DNA of 45,917 nucleotides. Origin: a phage. A program made the translations under genes and the position numbers. A model generated the notes under the pieces. The model was not told the DNA's origin. It ran no database searches and saw only the letters and a list, made by a program, of their open reading frames with translations. The stretch lies in assembly GCA_014750165.1 (NCBI GenBank), contig GCA_014750165.1_4319.1; one strand, written 5' to 3'. Position 1 is the stretch's first letter. Every line of letters starts with the position of its first letter. Shown in pieces: positions 6,272-34,770 of this stretch.

Positions 6272-6622
6272 ATGGCTATTGATACTTTTAAATGGTGCAC
6301 TCAGATACAAAATGGAGGAGCCGCATTTTCCAACACGAACAATGTGCGAATCGTTAGCTTTGGTAATGGTTACGAGGCTAGAGGCACGGGAGGCTATCGC
6401 AGCAACAAGCGCAGCTACCAGATGACATACACTAACAAGGACTGGCGAGATGTGATGGATTTCTGCTTCAACCACATCATTACCCCGTTCTTCTGGACAA
6501 CTCCGCAGGGTGATACATCAATGTTTGTGATTCAACAGGATAGTATTAGCGTGACACCAGTCAGTAAGGAAGTTCAGACTGTAAACATGCAATTCGTGGA
6601 AGTATTTAGCTCAATGCGTTAA
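6272..6622 (+). CDS. minor tail protein (lambda M-like), putative
   Basis: In-frame part of track ORF 6245..6622 from ATG 6272 (AGGA-N5-ATG); track N-extension would translate a GC hairpin; position after tape measure. Confidence 0.5.
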   Translation: MAIDTFKWCTQIQNGGAAFSNTNNVRIVSFGNGYEARGTGGYRSNKRSYQMTYTNKDWRDVMDFCFNHIITPFFWTTPQGDTSMFVIQQDSISVTPVSKEVQTVNMQFVEVFSSMR

Positions 6623-6624
6623 AC

Positions 6625-6648
6625 TAGGCCCCATTAGGGGCTTTTTTA
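6625..6648 (+). terminator. rho-independent terminator
   Basis: GCCCC-ATTA-GGGGC hairpin followed by T6 run; same terminator-RBS module recurs before portal gene. Confidence 0.5.
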
Positions 6649-6660
6649 TTGGAGAAAATC

Positions 6661-7416
6661 ATGTTAAGTCCAAAGTTTGAAAATCAGTTGCAAAGTCTTT
6701 TCCCAGGCGAGATTGTGACTCTAATCCAGGTTGACGGAACCTCCTTTGGCTCTCTCGTTTATTCGTTCCATAATGAGAACATTTCATACACGCCAGAAGA
6801 GATCATGCTTGCCCAAATGAATGGCGAGCCACTGCCAGAGAAAACGATTACATTCCGTGGTGAAGAGTACGGCCCAAGACCTTTCGGCATCTCTGGCATC
6901 AATATGACTTCTGATGGCAAGGCAAACAAAGTTACGCTAACTGTATCAAACGTAGACCAGAGGATTAGCGCCTTGATTCGAACATACAACGGACTTGTTA
7001 AAGCTAAGGTTACCATATGGATTACTACGCGAGATAACATCAATGAAGACGGGAGTATTGCTGATGGAGATTATCGCAAATTCGTTTACTTCATTGAGCG
7101 ACCTAAGCAGGTTGATTACAAAACTGCGTCATTTGAGCTTAGTAGCCCGATGGATATGGATGGCATTTACATACCCGCACGGCTTGTTCAGTCTGTTTGT
7201 TATTGGGCGTCAAGGGGTTGGTATCGTAGCGGTAATGGATGCGACTACGCTGGTAATCGTTATTTTGACAAAGACGACAACCCGGTCAGTGACCCTTCTC
7301 TAGATTTCTGTGCGGGCACTGTTAACAGTTGCAAGATTAGATTCGGCGAGAATAATCAGCTTTCATTTGGTGGATGCGCAGCAGCAAGCCTTCAAGCCAA
7401 AGCGAATCAATCATAG
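6661..7416 (+). CDS. minor tail protein (lambda L-like)
   Basis: ATG 6661 after GGAGAAAATC; C-terminal Cys cluster (CYWASRGW...CDYAG...CAGTVNSC...FGGC) typical of L-like tail tip proteins; track start 6649 is a TTG inside the RBS. Confidence 0.6.
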   Translation: MLSPKFENQLQSLFPGEIVTLIQVDGTSFGSLVYSFHNENISYTPEEIMLAQMNGEPLPEKTITFRGEEYGPRPFGISGINMTSDGKANKVTLTVSNVDQRISALIRTYNGLVKAKVTIWITTRDNINEDGSIADGDYRKFVYFIERPKQVDYKTASFELSSPMDMDGIYIPARLVQSVCYWASRGWYRSGNGCDYAGNRYFDKDDNPVSDPSLDFCAGTVNSCKIRFGENNQLSFGGCAAASLQAKANQS

Positions 7417-7430
7417 CACTTTTTGTTAAG
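7413..7430 (+). promoter_or_regulatory. gene-boundary palindrome cassette, variant copy
   Basis: ATAGCACTTTTTGTTAAG followed by GCGCA..TGCGC inverted repeat; precedes HNH gene. Confidence 0.4.
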
Positions 7431-7482
7431 AGGAAGGCGCAGGAATGCGCTATCCTCTAATCTCTTAAACTGGAGATTAAAA

Positions 7483-7968
7483 ATGAACTGGAATGAAATT
7501 TTCGAATACAGAGATGGCAAGATTTATTGGAAAGTTAGCCCTGGCAGGAGGGCTAAGGTTGGTTCGGAAGCTGGATCAAATCAAATAAAAGGGTATAGAT
7601 TTGTGAAATTTCACGGAGTTTTATATATGACACACAGGGTTATTTGGGAGATGCATAACTGTGAAATACCGCATGGAATGGAGGTTGACCATTTAAATCA
7701 CATTAGGGACGATAACAGGATAGAGAATTTAAGAGTTGTTACAAAGTCAATTAATCAGAGGAATGCATCTAAAAGAATTGATAATAAAAGCGGTTTTACA
7801 GGCGTTTCTTGGTATCCCAAATATTCAAAGTGGAATGCTTACGCGACAGTAAATTCCAAGAGGTTTAATCTTGGTTACTTTGAATCAAAGCAAGATGCCT
7901 ATGTGGCTGTTAAAAAATTTAGGTCCATAAATGATTTTCATAAAAACCATGGAGTTGATTTATGTTAA
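7483..7968 (+). CDS. HNH homing endonuclease
   Basis: MNWNEIFEYRDGKIYWK...; HNH core EVDHLNHIRDDNRIENLR; ATG 7483 after GGAGA; paralogous to 27993..28485 and 34044..34535. Confidence 0.8.
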   Translation: MNWNEIFEYRDGKIYWKVSPGRRAKVGSEAGSNQIKGYRFVKFHGVLYMTHRVIWEMHNCEIPHGMEVDHLNHIRDDNRIENLRVVTKSINQRNASKRIDNKSGFTGVSWYPKYSKWNAYATVNSKRFNLGYFESKQDAYVAVKKFRSINDFHKNHGVDLC

Positions 7969-8720
7969 CAAAAAGATGCAAATTAGAAATCTTTCGCCAC
8001 GCCAACGAGGTTTACCCGCATGAGTGCTGTGGAGTCGTCACACAGAAGGGTCGCGCTCAGAAATACCATAGAATCAAAAACGCCAGTAAAGACCCGGAAA
8101 ATGAGTTTATCCTTGATTCAAATGAGTATGCAGATGTTCTCTTTGAGTTAGCTCACAATGAGTCAATTGTTTACGTAGTTCACTCCCACACGGGTGATGG
8201 AGCCACAACAAGACCCAGCCCAGCGGATATCTGTAGCTGCAATGAATGCGAGATTCCTTATGTTATTGTAAGCATCCCAGAGGGAGACATGCGGATTCTT
8301 GAGCCATCAAATATGCCACTGATTGGTCGACCGTGGGGTCTTGGTAGCTTCGATTGCTGGGAGTTGGTTATGGCATTTCACAAGAAATACGGCGTAAAGC
8401 TGAACGACTATCGCGTTAATTACCCATGGTGGGAGAAGAAGTACAGCGAAAATATCTATGACGACAATTGGGCTAAAGAAGGTTTTGAGCTAGTAAAAAA
8501 CTCAGATATTCCCATTGGATCAATGATTATGATGCAGGTGCAGAGTGAGGTGACAAACCACGCCGGAATCTATATTGGCAACAACAGATTCATCCACCAT
8601 CTCTATGGTAAAATGAGTTCTGTAGATATCTACTCCGATTACTGGCGCGAGCGCACGGTGCGAATCGTTCGCCATAAGGATTTACCAGAGGATGTAATTT
8701 ATGACCCAGAAACTGATTGA
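7962..8720 (+). CDS. tail assembly protein (lambda K-like; JAB/MPN + NlpC/P60)
   Basis: HSHT...SPAD JAMM-like motif followed by Cys/His peptidase-like region; position between L and I homologs. Confidence 0.65.
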   Translation: MLTKRCKLEIFRHANEVYPHECCGVVTQKGRAQKYHRIKNASKDPENEFILDSNEYADVLFELAHNESIVYVVHSHTGDGATTRPSPADICSCNECEIPYVIVSIPEGDMRILEPSNMPLIGRPWGLGSFDCWELVMAFHKKYGVKLNDYRVNYPWWEKKYSENIYDDNWAKEGFELVKNSDIPIGSMIMMQVQSEVTNHAGIYIGNNRFIHHLYGKMSSVDIYSDYWRERTVRIVRHKDLPEDVIYDPETD

Positions 8721-9273
8721 TATTAAGTTAGGCCTGTCGCTAGGCCGTAAGTTTGGCAAGATTCACCAAATGGCAGTGAGTAGCGTGCCAGAGGCAATGC
8801 GAGCGCTTTGCTCTCAGATTCCCGCCCTCAAGGAGTTCATGAACAGTCATGTTGGTCAAAACACAAGGTACGCCGTGTTCGTTGATGGCAAAAATGTGAA
8901 CGAGCATCGAATCTCTGATTTTAGCGCCGTTCATGAGATACGCATCTTACCAATCCCTCAAGGCCGCAAGTCAGGTGGGTTATTTCAGACAATCCTAGGT
9001 GCTGCGCTTATCACGGTTGGTATCTTTACTGGTCAGATTTATCTTGTTGGTGCTGGTGTGTCTTTGGCAGCGGGTGGTATTGCTCAGCTACTTTCACCAC
9101 AAGCAACTGGATTAAAGACCCAGAACAACCAAGCGAGCAACCGCGCATCTTACGCATTTGGCTCAGCTGTAAACACGGTAGCCGCTGGTTATCCAGTCTG
9201 CCTACCATATGGCTACAGAACGGTTGGTGGCTCGGTATTTAGTGCCGGCAGCTACGCCGAAGACAATGCTTAA
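8701..9273 (+). CDS. tail assembly protein (lambda I-like)
   Basis: 190 aa with C-terminal hydrophobic/Gly-rich segment; position immediately upstream of J-like gene. Confidence 0.5.
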   Translation: MTQKLIDIKLGLSLGRKFGKIHQMAVSSVPEAMRALCSQIPALKEFMNSHVGQNTRYAVFVDGKNVNEHRISDFSAVHEIRILPIPQGRKSGGLFQTILGAALITVGIFTGQIYLVGAGVSLAAGGIAQLLSPQATGLKTQNNQASNRASYAFGSAVNTVAAGYPVCLPYGYRTVGGSVFSAGSYAEDNA

Positions 9274-9314: not shown

Positions 9315-12300
9315 ATGGCACAAATGATCAAAACAAACATGGGGCTTTTTGATATGGCTGAAGAGATTAAGATTTATGGTGCTAAGGGTGGTAGCCAGAA
9401 GCAGCACCAACCAGTGGAGCAAGAAGATAACCTAATTTCACTTAACAAGGTTAAGGTACTGCTTGCGGTTGCTGATGGTGAGGTTGACCCTAATTTCTCA
9501 ATGAAGGATTTATACCTTGCTGACGTTCCGGTGCAAAACCAGGATGGTAGCTACAACTATGAAGGTGTTCGTGCTGAGTTCCGCGCTGGCACGCAGTATC
9601 AGGATTATATCGCTGGCCTTGATGGTGCTAACTCAGAGATTCAGGCTTCCAGAGAAATTACGAACGATACCCCGTACATCATTGCGGTTAACAACACTCA
9701 GCTATCAGCAATTCGAGTTAAGCTATTTTGGCCTCGACTTGTCAAGCAGGAAAGTAACGGTGACCTGAACGGTACAACATGCGAGTATGCAATTGACCTA
9801 TCTGTTAATGGTGGTGCTTACCAGGAATACACTCGCGGAGTTGCTAACGGGAAGACAACTACAGGTTACGACCGCAGCATTCGTATAAACCTTCCGGCTG
9901 AATTTGATAGCGCTTTGGTTCGTATCCGCAAGATTACAGCAGATTCAACAAGTAGCACACTGGTAAACGGGATGCAGATTACAACCTATCAGGAAGTAAT
10001 TGACGCTAAATTCCGCTATCCGCTTACCGCCCTGGTTTATGTTGAGTTTGGTTCTGACTTGTTCCCTAACGGAATCCCGACAATCTCAATCAAGAAGCGC
10101 TGGAAGTTAATTCAGGTTCCTACAAACTACGACCCGGAGACAAGAACTTACAGCGGGACATGGAATGGCCTTTTCAAAATGGCGTGGTCAAATAACCCGG
10201 CATGGGTTTTATATGACTTAGTAACAAACCGACGTTACGGACTTGACCAAAGAGAATTGGGTGTAGAGATTGATAAGTGGGGTCTTTACGAAGCTGCGCA
10301 ATTTTGTGACCAGATGGTTCCTGATGGTAAGGGTGGAATGGAGCCGCGCTACCTGTGCGATATGGTTGTGCAGAACAAGGTTGAGGCTTACACGCTAATT
10401 CGTGATATCTGCTCAATCTTCCGTGGCCTGACTTTCTATGACGGCGAAAAGATTGGTATCGTGGTTGATAAGCCTCGCAATCCATCTTACATTTTCACAA
10501 ATGATAACGTTGTAAACGGATTATTCAGCCGCACCTTTGCCAGTGACAAGAGTCTTTACACTACCGCAAACGTCCAGTTTGATGATGTAGAGAACAACTA
10601 TCAACAAGATGTAGAGCCGGTATTTGAATTAGAGGCAACTCGTCGTTTTGGATTTAACCCTGTAGATTTAACTGCGATTGGCTGTACTCGCAGAAGTGAA
10701 GCAAACAGACGTGGCAGATGGCTCCTAAAAACCAACCTGAGAAGCGAAACTATCAGCTTCACTACCGGGTTGGAGGGTATGATTCCGATGATTGGCGAGG
10801 TGATTGCGGTTAATGACGCGGCATGGTCTAGCAACTATCAGTTAAACCTTTCAGGTCGTATTGAATCAGTTCAGGGATTGCAGGCTTTTACCCCGTTCAA
10901 AGTTGACGCAGCGCCGGGTGACAGAATTCTTCTGAACAAGCCAGACGGCAGCCCAGAGGCAAGAACTATTGCCAGCGTTTCGGAGGATGGTAGAACAATC
11001 AACCTTAACACTGCTTTCAGCTTTGTAGCTCAGCCTGATACTGTATTCGCAATCGATAAGGATAATCTGGCGCTTCAGCAGTATGTTGTGACCGGGATTC
11101 AAAAAGCAGATACTGACGGCTCAGATTCATTCCAGTATACGATTACCGCGGTGGAGTATGACCCTAACAAGTATGACGAGATTGACTACGGCGTTAACAT
11201 CGTTGATCGTCCGACTTCAATCGTAGAGCCTGACAGATTGTCGCCGCCTGAGAATTTAACAGTGTCAAGCTACAGTAAGGTTGTTCAGGGCTTGTCAGTC
11301 GAGACGATGGTAATTGGCTGGGACAAGGCTCCATACGCTAAAACATACAATATTCAGTGGAGGAAAGAAAATGGTAACTGGATTAACGTACCCAGAACAG
11401 CAAGTACAGAAGTTGATATTGAGGGCATTTACGCAGGAATCTATGACGTTAGGGTTCGCAGCGTATCAGATACTGAAAACGTGTCTGCCTGGTCTAGCGT
11501 TGTAACGGTATCGCTAACTGGCAAGATTGGTCGACCTTCGGCGCCTACGGTTATCACGGCTTCAACTGATGAGGTATTTGGCATCCGTGTTAAGTGGGGT
11601 TTCCCTGAGGGTTCTGGTGACACTGCTTACACCGAACTTCAGCAGGTTCCAGATAATGGTGATGGTACTTACAATGCTGATAACGCGAGCTTACTTACGC
11701 TGCTTCCGTATCCGGCGTATGAATACTGGCACACGCCAATTCAGCCAGGCAAGGTGATTTGGTATCGCGCAAGATTGATTGACAGAATCGGTAACACATC
11801 TGATTGGTCTAATTTCGCAAGAGGCATGAGTACTGACGATGCCAACATTATCAATGATTACATCAAGGTTGATATTGAAGGTTCTGAAGGATTCAAATAT
11901 CTCGAGCAGAATGCGATTCAAAAGAATCAGGACATTCAGAATCAGGCAGAATCAATTCTCGAGAACGCATTAGCTAATGATACTGATGTTCGCCGCATGA
12001 CAAGGGAGAACGGCAAACGCAAGGCTGAATATGTTCAGGCAGTGAATCTAATAGCTGATGAAACTCAGGCGCGAGTAGAGGCTCTCACAGCTCTTAAGGC
12101 GCAGATAGATGATGAAGTTGTAGCATCGATTACAGAAGTTCAGACAGCTCTAGCAACTGAGACGGAAGCAAGAACTACTGCAGACACGGCTCTATCAGCA
12201 AGATTGGGTGATAACGAGGCGGCCATAAACCAGAAGTTAGACGCATTCTCCAATGCGACATCTACTGGCGTGCAATACGGAATCAGTTTAGGTCTTAAAT

Positions 12301-26783: not shown

Positions 26784-27920
26784 ATGGCAACTGCAAAAAT
26801 CACTAACGAAGAGCTGCGTGAAGAGCTTGCTAATGGCATGACAAACAAGGCAATCGCAGAGAAATACGGAATGAACATTCGCAACGTTGAATTGCGTCGT
26901 AGTAAATTGGCAAAGAGTGGAGAATTGCACGGAAACCCAGGTATCAAGAAGTTAGTTCCTGACGGTTATATGGTTAAGGGAACCTCCACGATGATTGATG
27001 CGGATGGTAACGAGAAGCTGCGCTGGGTTAAAACCTCTGTAGACAATGAGCGACTTGAGGTTTTAATGGAGCAAGCTCGAGAAGCATTTTGCTCTGATTT
27101 GCCAAAGGCTATTCCATCTGAATCACCGAATGTTAACTTTGATGATAACACGCTTGCGATGTATCCAGTTTTTGATTTACACATTGGGGCGATGGCTCAC
27201 AAACATGAGTGTGGCGAAAACTATGATACAGCAACAGCAGAGAAAGTAATGAATGGGTTCTTTGACTACGCTGTTGATAAGGCTCCAAACTCTAAGAATG
27301 CTGTATTGGTATTGGGTGGTGATTTCCTGCATTACGACTCTCTGGAGGCTAAAACCCCGGCATCAGGTCATATCTTAGATTCTGACAGTCGTTACGCCAA
27401 GATTGTTTATGTTGCAATCCGGTCAGTGCGTCGTGCCATTTCTCGAATGATGGAAAAGCACCAAGTTATTGAAATTAAAGTAATAAGTGGCAATCACGAC
27501 GAGGCAGGAATGGTTTGGCTCCGCGCTGCACTTGCTGCATTTTATGAAGATGAGCCTCGCGTAAATGTTGATGTTAGCCCAGCCGCAATGATGATGACCA
27601 GCTTTGGAACGACGCTTATTGGATACACTCACGGGCACCAAATGCGGAAAGCCGATACTCGACTAACTGTTATGGCAACTGATTTTCGTAAGTTATTTGG
27701 CCAAAGTGAGTATGTTTACACACATAGTGGCCACTGGCATTCGCAGAAGATTACAGAAACAAACTTGGGAATTGATGAGGTTCATGGGCAGCTTGGAAGC
27801 CCTGACGCGTACTCCGCAAATGGCGGTTGGCGTTCTCAACGTCAAGCGGCAGTCATTGTCTACCATAAAGAATTCGGTGAAGTTGGCCGATTCATTTGTC
27901 GCCCTAAAATGTTTGGCTAA
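26784..27920 (+). CDS. HTH-fused calcineurin-like metallophosphoesterase
   Basis: N-terminal HTH-like TNKAIAEKYGMNIRNVELRRSKL; MPP motifs D-x-H (FDLHIG), GDxxD (GGDFLHYD), GNHDE, THGH, GHWH. Confidence 0.65.
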   Translation: MATAKITNEELREELANGMTNKAIAEKYGMNIRNVELRRSKLAKSGELHGNPGIKKLVPDGYMVKGTSTMIDADGNEKLRWVKTSVDNERLEVLMEQAREAFCSDLPKAIPSESPNVNFDDNTLAMYPVFDLHIGAMAHKHECGENYDTATAEKVMNGFFDYAVDKAPNSKNAVLVLGGDFLHYDSLEAKTPASGHILDSDSRYAKIVYVAIRSVRRAISRMMEKHQVIEIKVISGNHDEAGMVWLRAALAAFYEDEPRVNVDVSPAAMMMTSFGTTLIGYTHGHQMRKADTRLTVMATDFRKLFGQSEYVYTHSGHWHSQKITETNLGIDEVHGQLGSPDAYSANGGWRSQRQAAVIVYHKEFGEVGRFICRPKMFG

Positions 27921-27940
27921 TAGCGCTTTTTGTTAAAACG
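27919..27940 (+). promoter_or_regulatory. gene-boundary palindrome cassette, variant
   Basis: AATAGCGCTTTTTGTTAAAACG then ATACCCGC..GCGGGTAT hairpin, ATCGAAACGG. Confidence 0.4.
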
Positions 27941-27992
27941 ATACCCGCGAAAGCGGGTATTATTGTTTTATCGAAACGGCAGGGGGATTGAA

Positions 27993-28485
27993 ATGAATTG
28001 GCATGATTTTTTTATACTATAAGGATGGAAAGGTTTTCTGGAGAGATCCGCACTGCACGAGATTGAAGCCAGGTGATGAGGCTGGTAGTAGGCACCATAG
28101 GGGTTATTGGTATATTCGTAGATATGACAAAACAATGTCAAGGCACCGAATCGTATGGGAGATGCACAACGGAACAATACCAGACGGTATGGAGATAGAT
28201 CATATAAATCACGTGCCTGGTGATGACAGAATTGAAAACCTAAGAATGGTCACAAGAAGGCAAAACAATCAAAACAAAAAATTAAATGAAAGAAATACAA
28301 GCGGACACGTCGGGGTTAGCTGGAACAAGAAGACAAACAAATGGAGAGCAATGATAGGCATAAGGGGAGAGGACGGAAAGAGGAAAACTTTATACGTTTA
28401 TTATGGTGATTCTTTCGATGATGCGGTATCAGCAAGAAAGAAAGCAGAGGCTGAGCACTCGTTTCATGAAAATCACGGTAAATAG
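27993..28485 (+). CDS. HNH homing endonuclease, interrupted by frameshift at T7 tract
   Basis: ATG 27993 with strong RBS (AGGGGGA) encodes MNWHDFF then stops; HNH body (track 28003..28485) is in +1 frame; an 8th T would restore MNWHDFFLYYKDGKVFW, matching the paralog N-terminus MNWNEIFEYRDGKIYWK. Confidence 0.7.
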
Positions 28486-34043: not shown

Positions 34044-34535
34044 CTACCTCATTCCGCTGTTCTTGTGGTATTTCGCATTAACCTCAGCAACAATCCTCGC
34101 CTCGCAAGCACAGATAAAGTCTATGAATGTTCCTAAACATACAATTTTCCCATCTATGCTAATTCTTGCCGACCACTTACCTCTAACATCCATGTTCACA
34201 CCAGTTACCCCTGGCTTTCTTCTTACATACCTTTTGAGATTCTTATGATTTTCCATGTGGCTAACTAGCCTTAAGTTTTCAATCCTATTATCAGACCTAT
34301 CTCCATTAATGTGGTCGATCTGCATTCCTTTTGGTATATCTCCGTTGTGAATAATCCAGACCGCTCGATGGCAATAAATTAGCTTATTCTTAACCCTAAA
34401 TGCCTTGTATCCATGGCTATGCATGCAGCCAGCCTCGTCACCAACTTTTACTTGGGATGAGTTATACTTTCTGTAAAGTTTCCCATCCTTATACTCTACG
34501 GCGTTTACAATATCCTCAACTAGAATGGCACACAT
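34044..34535 (-). CDS. HNH homing endonuclease
   Basis: HNH core QIDHINGDRSDNRIENLR; paralog of 7483 and 27993 genes. Confidence 0.8.
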   Translation of the reverse strand: MCAILVEDIVNAVEYKDGKLYRKYNSSQVKVGDEAGCMHSHGYKAFRVKNKLIYCHRAVWIIHNGDIPKGMQIDHINGDRSDNRIENLRLVSHMENHKNLKRYVRRKPGVTGVNMDVRGKWSARISIDGKIVCLGTFIDFICACEARIVAEVNAKYHKNSGMR

Positions 34536-34696
34536 GATTCACACCCCCAATCCCCACAACAGAAATCTTCATCCTCTGACTGGAATTGCTTAGCCAAATC
34601 AATATCCAACTTTCCGCGGACAACAATTTCGGTGTAATCTTCGTTAAGTCCGATCAGCGCGCATTCGTGGCGTAACTCGTCTTTATCAATCTTCAT
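34520..34696 (-). CDS. hypothetical small Cys-rich protein (58 aa)
   Basis: MKIDKDELRHECALIG...FCCGDWGCESCVPF; ends 16 nt inside HNH start; cassette upstream; approx coords. Confidence 0.3.
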   Translation of the reverse strand: MKIDKDELRHECALIGLNEDYTEIVVRGKLDIDLAKQFQSEDEDFCCGDWGCESCVPF

Positions 34697-34748: not shown

Positions 34749-34770
34749 CTTTGGCAAAAAGTGCTATTCG
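34749..34770 (-). promoter_or_regulatory. gene-boundary palindrome cassette, variant (minus orientation)
   Basis: Reverse complement CGAATAGCACTTTTTGCCAAAG then TATAGT and CATCAAAACGA. Confidence 0.4.

Follow-up and report, generated by a model that had tools for sequence, protein, structure and literature searches.

A probable free-standing HNH homing endonuclease gene and its cassette between the tail tip genes L and K of a Braunvirinae coliphage

Background

Few accessory genes of lytic phages are commoner than free-standing genes for HNH endonucleases, and homing endonuclease genes pass through a cycle of invasion, fixation and decay. One HNH gene, hereafter HNH1, lies between two tail tip genes of the phage DNA analyzed here, and two related copies (HNH2 and HNH3) are found elsewhere in the window, i.e., in the whole stretch of 45,917 nucleotides. 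Its location raises the question of what brought it there, a homing activity of the encoded enzyme, the ordinary recombination of an accessory gene or the retention of a factor of benefit to the phage, and of whether the three copies stem from a single gene spreading within the genome. We know of no HNH gene of the Drexlerviridae for which cleavage, nicking or biased inheritance has been assayed.

Results

About 120 phage records matched the region around HNH1 (7483..7968) at 80-90% identity, nearly all of them Escherichia siphophages of the Drexlerviridae, subfamily Braunvirinae (Rtp, DTL, ACG-M12, CEB_EC3a and the vB_EcoS-12210I group). The closest of the phage records matched reached about 90% identity over the stretches around the gene, with none nearer. 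Judged by sequence, the source is a T1/Rtp-like (Rtp/DTL-like) coliphage of the Braunvirinae. With 45.9 kb, the window had about the size of a full genome in this group (Rtp/DTL-like).

HNH1 was encoded on the + strand (7483..7968) as an intact open reading frame (ORF) of 161 amino acids, with its ATG at 7483 and a ribosome binding site (RBS; GGAG, 7472-7475) 8 nt upstream. It was flanked on the left by the tail tip gene L (6649..7416, + strand; Pfam Phage_tail_L, E=2.1e-46) and on the right by the lambda-K-like tail tip gene K (7962..8720, + strand; Prok-JAB, E=6.8e-15; NLPC_P60, E=7.2e-17), both complete according to Pfam domains and ORF boundaries, with M further upstream and I and J downstream. 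The original prediction of an HNH gene between L-like and K-like tail genes was borne out by the intact ORF, its HNH_3 core and its Phage_tail_L and JAB/NlpC-P60 neighbours, and the cassette that it had ascribed to the gene was found as well, HNH1 being free-standing and inserted between L and K with expression signals of its own. An overlap with both neighbours had also been proposed; it was observed with K, whose start shares 7 nt with the end of HNH1 (ATGTTAA, 7962-7968), while the end of L (7416) and the ATG of HNH1 were 66 nt apart, a non-coding stretch holding a promoter-like element and a hairpin.

A scan of the whole window with Rfam at gathering thresholds displayed no intron family, a tRNA being the sole match, which argues for HNH1 being free-standing. 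An intron-encoded HNH endonuclease was rejected on this result and on the uninterrupted state of L and K, and a group I intron or any other structured RNA next to the HNH genes was rejected on the same scan. HNH1 is a correctly identified gene of an ordinary, already annotated kind, as its counterparts are recorded as "putative endonuclease" in DTL (ORF47, ATW61818.1) and as "HNH endonuclease" in Rtp (rtp40, YP_398984.1).

HNH1 matched the Pfam family HNH_3 (PF13392) with E=4.6e-20, and the three copies of the window scored 71.4, 73.4 and 73.0 bits, above the 24.8-bit cut-off. All three also matched phrog_99 ("HNH endonuclease") with E=1e-52 to 1e-61 (2.7e-61 for HNH1), and relatives of the HNH1 protein were present in more than 3,300 phage records. 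The sole PDB sequence match of HNH1 was I-HmuI (1U3E), at about 20% identity, where VDH (residues 68-70) and SIN (89-91) of HNH1 aligned with VDH and KIN of I-HmuI. Residues D69, H70, N82, N91 and N94 were invariant in five homologues (the three window copies, DTL ORF47 and Rtp40), and the core residues were also invariant when the three window copies were taken alone. We assume for them the roles given in the 1U3E paper, i.e., an Asp-His general-base pair and a metal-binding Asn within a beta-beta-alpha-metal core.

An AlphaFold model of HNH1, for which the alignment comprised the three window sequences only, had a mean pLDDT of 80. Its top PDB match in Foldseek, covering the full length, was 1u3e_M (169 columns, prob 0.99, E=6e-3), with a TM of 0.41 that is low and that comes from a three-sequence model. 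The next matches were AP2 domains, superposed on residues ~105-155 with rmsd of 1.4-2.6 A, among which those of TEM1 and WRINKLED1 gave 1.4-1.8 A (prob 0.97-1.00). The modelled C-terminus comprised strands at 108-111, 116-123 and 126-133, then a helix at 136-155. In Pfam, AP2 was a sub-threshold match in the C-terminal third of HNH1 (family scores of 19.8-21.5 bits vs a 33.3 cut-off), and the AP2 scan of HNH3 gave no match. The model predicts an I-HmuI-like beta region at the N-terminus, followed by the HNH core and, at the C-terminus, by an AP2-like domain. Such a combination is well known in phage and cyanobacterial HNH endonucleases. The C-terminal domain of I-HmuI in the 1U3E structure reportedly differs from the AP2-like one (three strands and a helix) of HNH1.

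The L/K junction was empty in most relatives and variously occupied in others. In 34 of the 40 best-matching relatives, about 540 bp were missing exactly at this junction. The empty junction of CEB_EC3a counted 10 nt from the stop of L to the start of K (TAA-GGGGAAATAA-ATG), and the EC3a-type empty sequence contained GCCAACCAGAGTTAAGGGGAAATAAATGTTAACACCAAAAGTTAAACTGGAAATA. DTL harbored the same gene as HNH1 at the same position (ORF47, 98% identity), Rtp its rtp40 HNH gene (48% identical, with the same element and hairpin upstream), and an IMG/VR contig (UViG8497) an HNH gene 56% identical to HNH1 and frameshifted after residue 98. These L/K-junction lineages (HNH-A, to which HNH1 belongs, Rtp40 and UViG8497) shared 48-56% identity and were closer to each other than to the copies at other sites. 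A further copy of HNH1, in the IMG/VR contig UViG_3300000290_000010, carried the nonsense mutation W16*. Cargo of other kinds was also present at the junction: SU57, ACG-M12 and phiEB49 had an ORF of 117-121 aa there (PHROG 14592, "virion structural protein"), and IME253 and Rao1 a Rha-like regulator on the opposite strand. As this non-nuclease cargo (the gp37-like virion protein and the Rha-like regulator) comes with the same promoter-like element, the junction may be a general insertion hotspot. The comparison with insertion-free relatives that had been suggested along with the original prediction yielded empty-site alleles for all three HNH sites, rather than a gene held at the same position by all close relatives.

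The putative mobile cassette extended beyond the gene itself, over 595 bp (7399..7993, + strand) comprising the last 6 codons of L, the element, the hairpin, the RBS, HNH1 and the first 11 codons of K. Three carriers of this cassette (HNH-A) were compared, i.e., the window, phage DTL and UViG_3300000290_000010, which were about 87% identical over 5.5 kb and 97-100% identical across 7399..7993. On both sides of the cassette, identity was 75-92%, mismatches recurring every 3-10 nt right from the edge. Each of the three pairwise comparisons placed the edges at 7399-7405 and 7993-7996, within 6 nt of one another. The dS was 0.011 in HNH1 (window vs DTL) and 0.57-0.97 in L and K, synonymous divergence across the three genomes being about 50-fold lower in the cassette than in its flanks. 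An identity of about 99% in the cassette vs about 87% in the flanks is the expected signature of a recent horizontal spread, which is supported by this sequence comparison. As the shared block coincides with the cassette in three backgrounds, the cassette itself points to being the mobile unit. Unrelated blocks of 100% identity were also found nearby (6496-7128 with EC3a and 8292-8991 with SU57), and since phages of the Braunvirinae are generally mosaic, a shared block alone is no proof of nuclease-driven transfer.

Both gene ends included in the cassette were recoded, the shared block taking in, beyond the insertion, 18 nt from the end of L and 32 nt from the start of K. At the end of L (7405..7416, + strand; AATCAATCATAG, N-Q-S-stop), the window had AAT CAA TCA TAG vs AAC CAG AGT TAA in empty alleles, encoding the same residues. 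Empty and gp37-type alleles ended in AAC/T CAG AGT/C TAA, differing in serine codon family and in stop codon, and the TCA-TAG/TAA form was linked to HNH-A, HNH-B and Rha-type cargo. The 5' end of K inside the cassette (7962..7993, + strand) encoded MLTKRCKLEIF and read ACAAAAAGATGCAAATTA in all three HNH-A carriers vs ACACCAAAAGTTAAACTG (MLTPKVKLEIF) in the seven other alleles, without exception; MLTPKVKLEIF was kept even in the distant relative phiEB49. This recoding amounted to 8 substitutions in 15 nt (7971-7985). A linked recoding of the otherwise invariant start of K would be expected if this stretch is the recognition site of the enzyme and the carrier has to be immune. Rtp, with its different HNH gene rtp40, kept the start of K unrecoded, which suggests a different target or specificity, or a different solution to immunity. 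The RBS of K (GGAG, 7951-7954) was located inside the coding sequence of HNH1 (…HGVDLC*), 7 nt before the ATG of K, so that the 3' end of HNH1 supplies the GGAG and translation of K would be preserved.

Upstream of HNH1, a promoter/operator-like palindrome (ATAGCACTTTTTGTTAA, 7413..7429, + strand) overlapped the stop codon of L and belonged to a repeat family. The 17-mer had 9 matches in the window vs 0.22 expected, and the family comprised 22 window copies at no more than two mismatches vs 1.7 in shuffles. Almost all copies were located just upstream of genes, and all three HNH genes lay downstream of one. The consensus consisted of AAATAGCAC-GAA-TTGCTAAA, about 20 nt, TATAGT, about 8 nt, CATCGAAACGAG, the RBS and ATG. 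The element resembles a promoter of the phage itself, combined with a palindromic operator, a function that is putative. A classical sigma-70 promoter upstream of HNH1 was rejected after a consensus scan called none there; the spacing of 22 nt between TTGYTA and TATNNT leaves no canonical -35/-10 pair, hence the label "promoter-like". A literature search by the sequence of the element found no paper containing it.

Next came an interrupted 12-bp hairpin (AGAGGA-A-GGCGCA-GGAA-TGCGCT-A-TCCTCT, 7429..7458, + strand; -19.9 kcal/mol) with a -10-like TATCCT (7451-7456) in its 3' arm, then TTAAACTGGAG and the ATG of HNH1. The top of the hairpin was the main variable place in an otherwise near-identical cassette. 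Among five homologous cassettes, 93% of cells were paired and two pairs showed compensatory changes, one pair occurring as GC/CG/UA. The covariation score was reached by 17 of 500 shuffles, and base-pair conservation drawn from five sequences is suggestive only.

The main rival explanation is that of a promoter-bearing accessory gene (a "moron"), moved by ordinary or short-homology recombination at the repeated promoter-like element and at gene ends, in which the nuclease has no role. At the L/K junction, all + strand cargo, whether it encoded a nuclease or something else, began with the ATAGCAC-N3-TTGCTAA element abutting the stop of L, the empty allele being without it, and HNH2 was flanked by two copies of the element (27920 and 28482), the empty allele of UALMA_PCEc3 having one. 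The 22 copies across the genome could offer homology, and mosaic blocks of 100% identity are common in this phage group. At site 1, however, the lack of an element in the empty allele leaves nothing of the kind to recombine with. Such a transfer also leaves unexplained the 8 substitutions within 15 nt of K in all carriers and the synonymous recoding of the L end, as well as the occurrence of three HNH lineages at one junction and of HNH genes as its commonest cargo. An accessory gene moved in this way accounts for the recoded flanks poorly, and is considered unlikely.

The second cassette (27920..28485, + strand) was composed of an element and hairpin (27920-27960), the ancestral but frameshifted ATG at 27993 and an intact ORF of 160 amino acids (28003..28485), here HNH2, that matched HNH_3 with E=1.1e-20. 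The paralogs had been placed at 27993..28485 and 34044..34535; the latter coordinates stood (- strand), while the former, a span of 493 nt, had to be amended, the ATG at 27993 being out of frame and followed by a stop after 9 codons, and the ORF running from 28003. As the orthologue of ACG-M12 starts at the ATG equivalent to 27993 (MDWNDFLEYRDG), HNH2 of the window carries a +1 frameshift within seven consecutive T. Site 2 was empty in UALMA_PCEc3 and others, held an orthologue in ACG-M12, ECH1 and SCS31, and in DTL contained another HNH gene, one interrupted by a premature stop. Between HNH2 and ACG-M12_0061, 19 of 155 aligned codons differed, with a dN/dS of 0.15. The dS of 0.38 was similar to that of the flanks (0.35-0.51), i.e., in the comparison with ACG-M12 the gene displayed no excess of similarity over its surroundings. 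These values indicate a probable long vertical inheritance of HNH2 under purifying selection, the canonical start having since been lost here.

HNH3 (34044..34535, - strand) encoded 163 amino acids and matched HNH_3 with E=1.5e-20. Its start overlapped the end of a 58-aa ORF (34520..34696) preceded by a promoter-like element (34751-34767, - strand). At site 3, the vB_EcoS-12210I group and DTL had the empty allele, and G8 had an unrelated small ORF. The best relatives of HNH3 were Salmonella phage genes at 48% identity, none exceeding this value in INPHARED or IMG/VR, and HNH3 is by this comparison a divergent allele without close relative.

The purifying selection on HNH2, which diverged as far as its flanks did, would also be expected of a domesticated phage factor kept for the benefit of the phage, either a packaging/terminase cofactor like HK97 gp74 or a nuclease directed against the host or competitors. 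Marker exclusion by homing endonucleases can moreover benefit linked genes (PMC2988022). Against domestication, HNH1 is located between tail genes, away from the terminase and portal genes, most close relatives are without the gene and are yet viable isolates, and copies with nonsense or frameshift mutations persist in otherwise intact genomes. Three of the four differences between HNH1 of the window and that of DTL were also non-synonymous, although these are tiny numbers. A terminase-associated packaging factor of the HK97 gp74 type was rejected for its position between L and K and its absence from most relatives, and domestication in general is very unlikely.

The three copies had been proposed to be one family that has spread to three sites. 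A tblastn search of all three proteins against the window returned exactly three copies, at 7483..7968 (+), 28003..28485 (+) and 34044..34535 (-), with pairwise protein identities of 37-43%; at the DNA level, only about 100 nt in the HNH core could be aligned. HNH1 had closer relatives outside the window, at 98-99% (DTL and the IMG/VR contig), 56% and 48% (HNH genes of the L/K junction) and 49% (a Klebsiella phage). With closer relatives elsewhere and 37-43% identity among themselves, the copies represent three independent lineages of one very large phage family. Membership of a single family was therefore retained (HNH_3, phrog_99), and spread within the genome was not. The latter, a recent intragenomic duplication included, could invoke the common architecture, PHROG family and N-terminal Y-x-DGK motif of the three copies, and is extremely improbable given their low identity, a DNA similarity confined to the HNH core and the fact that each copy is nearer to genes of other phages than to those of its own genome.

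Discussion

The gene at 7483..7968 is probably a free-standing, I-HmuI-like HNH homing endonuclease gene with an AP2-type domain, travelling as a 595-bp cassette. For the L/K copy, the homing-endonuclease reading of the original prediction is well supported by sequence comparisons, i.e., by the empty sites of 34/40 relatives, a cassette kept at 97-100% identity in three phages, the recoded ends of L and K and the decaying copies. Intact, constrained and decaying copies together fit the course that homing endonuclease genes usually take.

When phages with and without the cassette infect the same cell, the enzyme would nick or cut the allele that lacks it, at the L/K junction or in its immediate vicinity, the most likely target being the invariant codons 3-9 of K (ACACCAAAAGTTAAACTGGAA) and/or the stop region of L. 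The recombination genes of the phage would then mend the break with the cassette-bearing genome as template, copying in the cassette and only about 20-30 nt of flank, and the carrier would be immune through the recoding of its copy of the site. The cassette would spare its host phage by bringing a phage promoter-like element and an RBS, and by regenerating the RBS and start codon of K. HNH2 and HNH3 are independent members of the family at other polymorphic sites. By analogy with I-HmuI, HNH1 is expected to act by nicking a single strand (PMC2988022). A target close to the insertion is suggested by the very short flanks that the carriers share; characterised free-standing endonucleases of T4, however, often cut hundreds of bp away from their gene (PMC2988022), and a target at the start of K or the end of L is therefore only a guess.

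Among known systems, HNH1 shares an N-terminal beta region and an HNH core (D-H...N...N) with I-HmuI, I-HmuII and I-BasI from the Bacillus phages SPO1, SP82 and Bastille, which are encoded in group I introns, whereas HNH1 is free-standing between genes. In this respect it resembles MobA-MobE of T4 ("intronless homing"), which are likewise free-standing, intergenic and variably present among related phages, and which are propagated by gene conversion, their flanks being co-converted (PMC2790892; PMC2988022). MobA-MobE belong to another phage family and have other C-terminal domains. The cut made by T4 enzymes is often far away from their gene, whereas the tract shared among HNH1 carriers extends only 18 + 32 nt past the insertion, and mobility in HNH1 is deduced from such comparisons. 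The I-HmuI-like HNH endonucleases of lactococcal Skunavirus phages also occur more than once in a genome, the number and position of the copies varying, with marker exclusion observed, and cluster by insertion site (PMC12724721). Copy number and position vary likewise in the family of the window, which also groups by site, the lineages of the L/K junction falling together. Skunavirus represents a Gram-positive siphophage group, and no sequence kinship with the window copies is claimed.

The importance of the gene beyond annotation is small, HNH1 being 98% identical to an annotated gene of DTL. The practical yield consists of corrected copy coordinates, a 595-bp cassette with exact edges and, in the invariant start of K, a concrete prediction of the target. 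Phylogenies of Braunvirinae phages should mask the L/K junction and the HNH-linked flanks.

It is conceivable, although rather unlikely, that the repeated element (palindrome, spacer that is often a hairpin, TATAGT and CATCGAAACGAG) acts as a portable cassette boundary in the Braunvirinae. The element would then both express small accessory genes, nuclease or not, and help to insert them at gene junctions, and HNH genes would exploit this module, much like the promoter-early stem-loop (PeSL) units proposed for T4-type phages. The hairpin, fast-evolving yet preserving its pairing within a 99%-identical cassette, would in that case have a role of its own. PeSL cassettes were reportedly described in T4-type phages by Arbiol et al. 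in 2010. The likeness lies in a repeated unit of promoter and stem-loop at the edges of variable small-gene cassettes, whereas the motif of the window is another sequence (ATAGCAC-N3-TTGCTAA ... TATAGT ... CATCGAAACGAG) and its promoter function is putative. The repeated element is perhaps worth a separate look for the transcription of T1/Rtp-like phages.

Degeneration of HNH genes

Decayed copies of the HNH genes were found in relatives at two sites. At the junction of the tail genes L and K, the IMG/VR copy that is 99% identical to the first HNH gene of the window (7483..7968, +) carried the stop W16* (2546-2548 of its locus, L013), and a copy with 56% identity at the same junction displayed a frameshift after residue 98 (L015, 2501-2990). 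At the site of the second HNH gene, the DTL copy (L074, about 1795-2290) ended in a premature stop about 14 codons short of the end of the gene, which is absent from the GenBank annotation of DTL.

The second HNH copy of the window had itself lost its ancestral start (27993-28020). A +1 frameshift within a run of seven Ts placed the ATG at 27993 out of frame, reading from it leading to a stop after 9 codons, and the sole in-frame start left was the ATG at 28003, which lacked a good RBS.

Cargo at tail gene junctions

In relatives, the L/K junction also serves as a hotspot where cargo other than nuclease genes is inserted (L003 2411-2894, L010 1767-2253, L012 1777-2275 and L011 718-1335). It harbored an ORF of 117-121 aa belonging to PHROG 14592 ("virion structural protein") in SU57, ACG-M12 and phiEB49, while in IME253 and Rao1 the occupant was a Rha-like regulator encoded on the opposite strand.

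An additional HNH gene was located between the tape-measure gene and M in ACG-M12 and phiEB49 (L010 145-642; L012 142-621). The corresponding junction of the window encompassed a few nucleotides only (6241/6245).

A repeated promoter/operator-like element

A promoter/operator-like repeat was present in 22 copies in the window versus 1.7 in shuffled sequences (e.g., at 2342+, 14061-, 14808-, 17414+, 21263+, 25291+, 25582+, 29571+, 33654-, 36200+, 36833+ and 41141+). Its core, AAATAGCAC-N3-TTGCTAAA, was palindromic (TAGCA...TGCTA) and was followed by about 20 nt, TATAGT, CATCGAAACGAG, an RBS and the ATG, in this order. The stretch of about 20 nt 3' of the palindrome could form a hairpin in many copies, the stem of which enclosed the TATAAT/TATAGT box in some of them. 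Two spacer sub-types were distinguished, CGAAT and CTTTT, the latter being found upstream of all three HNH genes of the window. The literature searched for the element sequence yielded no match.

Mosaicism and other features

Blocks with 98-100% identity to CEB_EC3a (6496-7128) or to SU57 (8292-8991 and 10192-10291) were embedded in regions otherwise showing 80-90% identity, which shows that Braunvirinae phages have recently recombined with one another in events that do not involve the HNH genes. Opposite window position ~7128, the L gene of DTL (locus L001) contained about 121 extra nt that neither the window nor the other relatives have; these may be genuinely inserted sequence or may stem from an assembly artefact. 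The GenBank feature table of DTL has no entry for this L gene (ORF46).

The window encoded a single tRNA, a tRNA-Arg with anticodon TCT (38659-38736), matching what was reported for other T1-like phages (PMC4070988).
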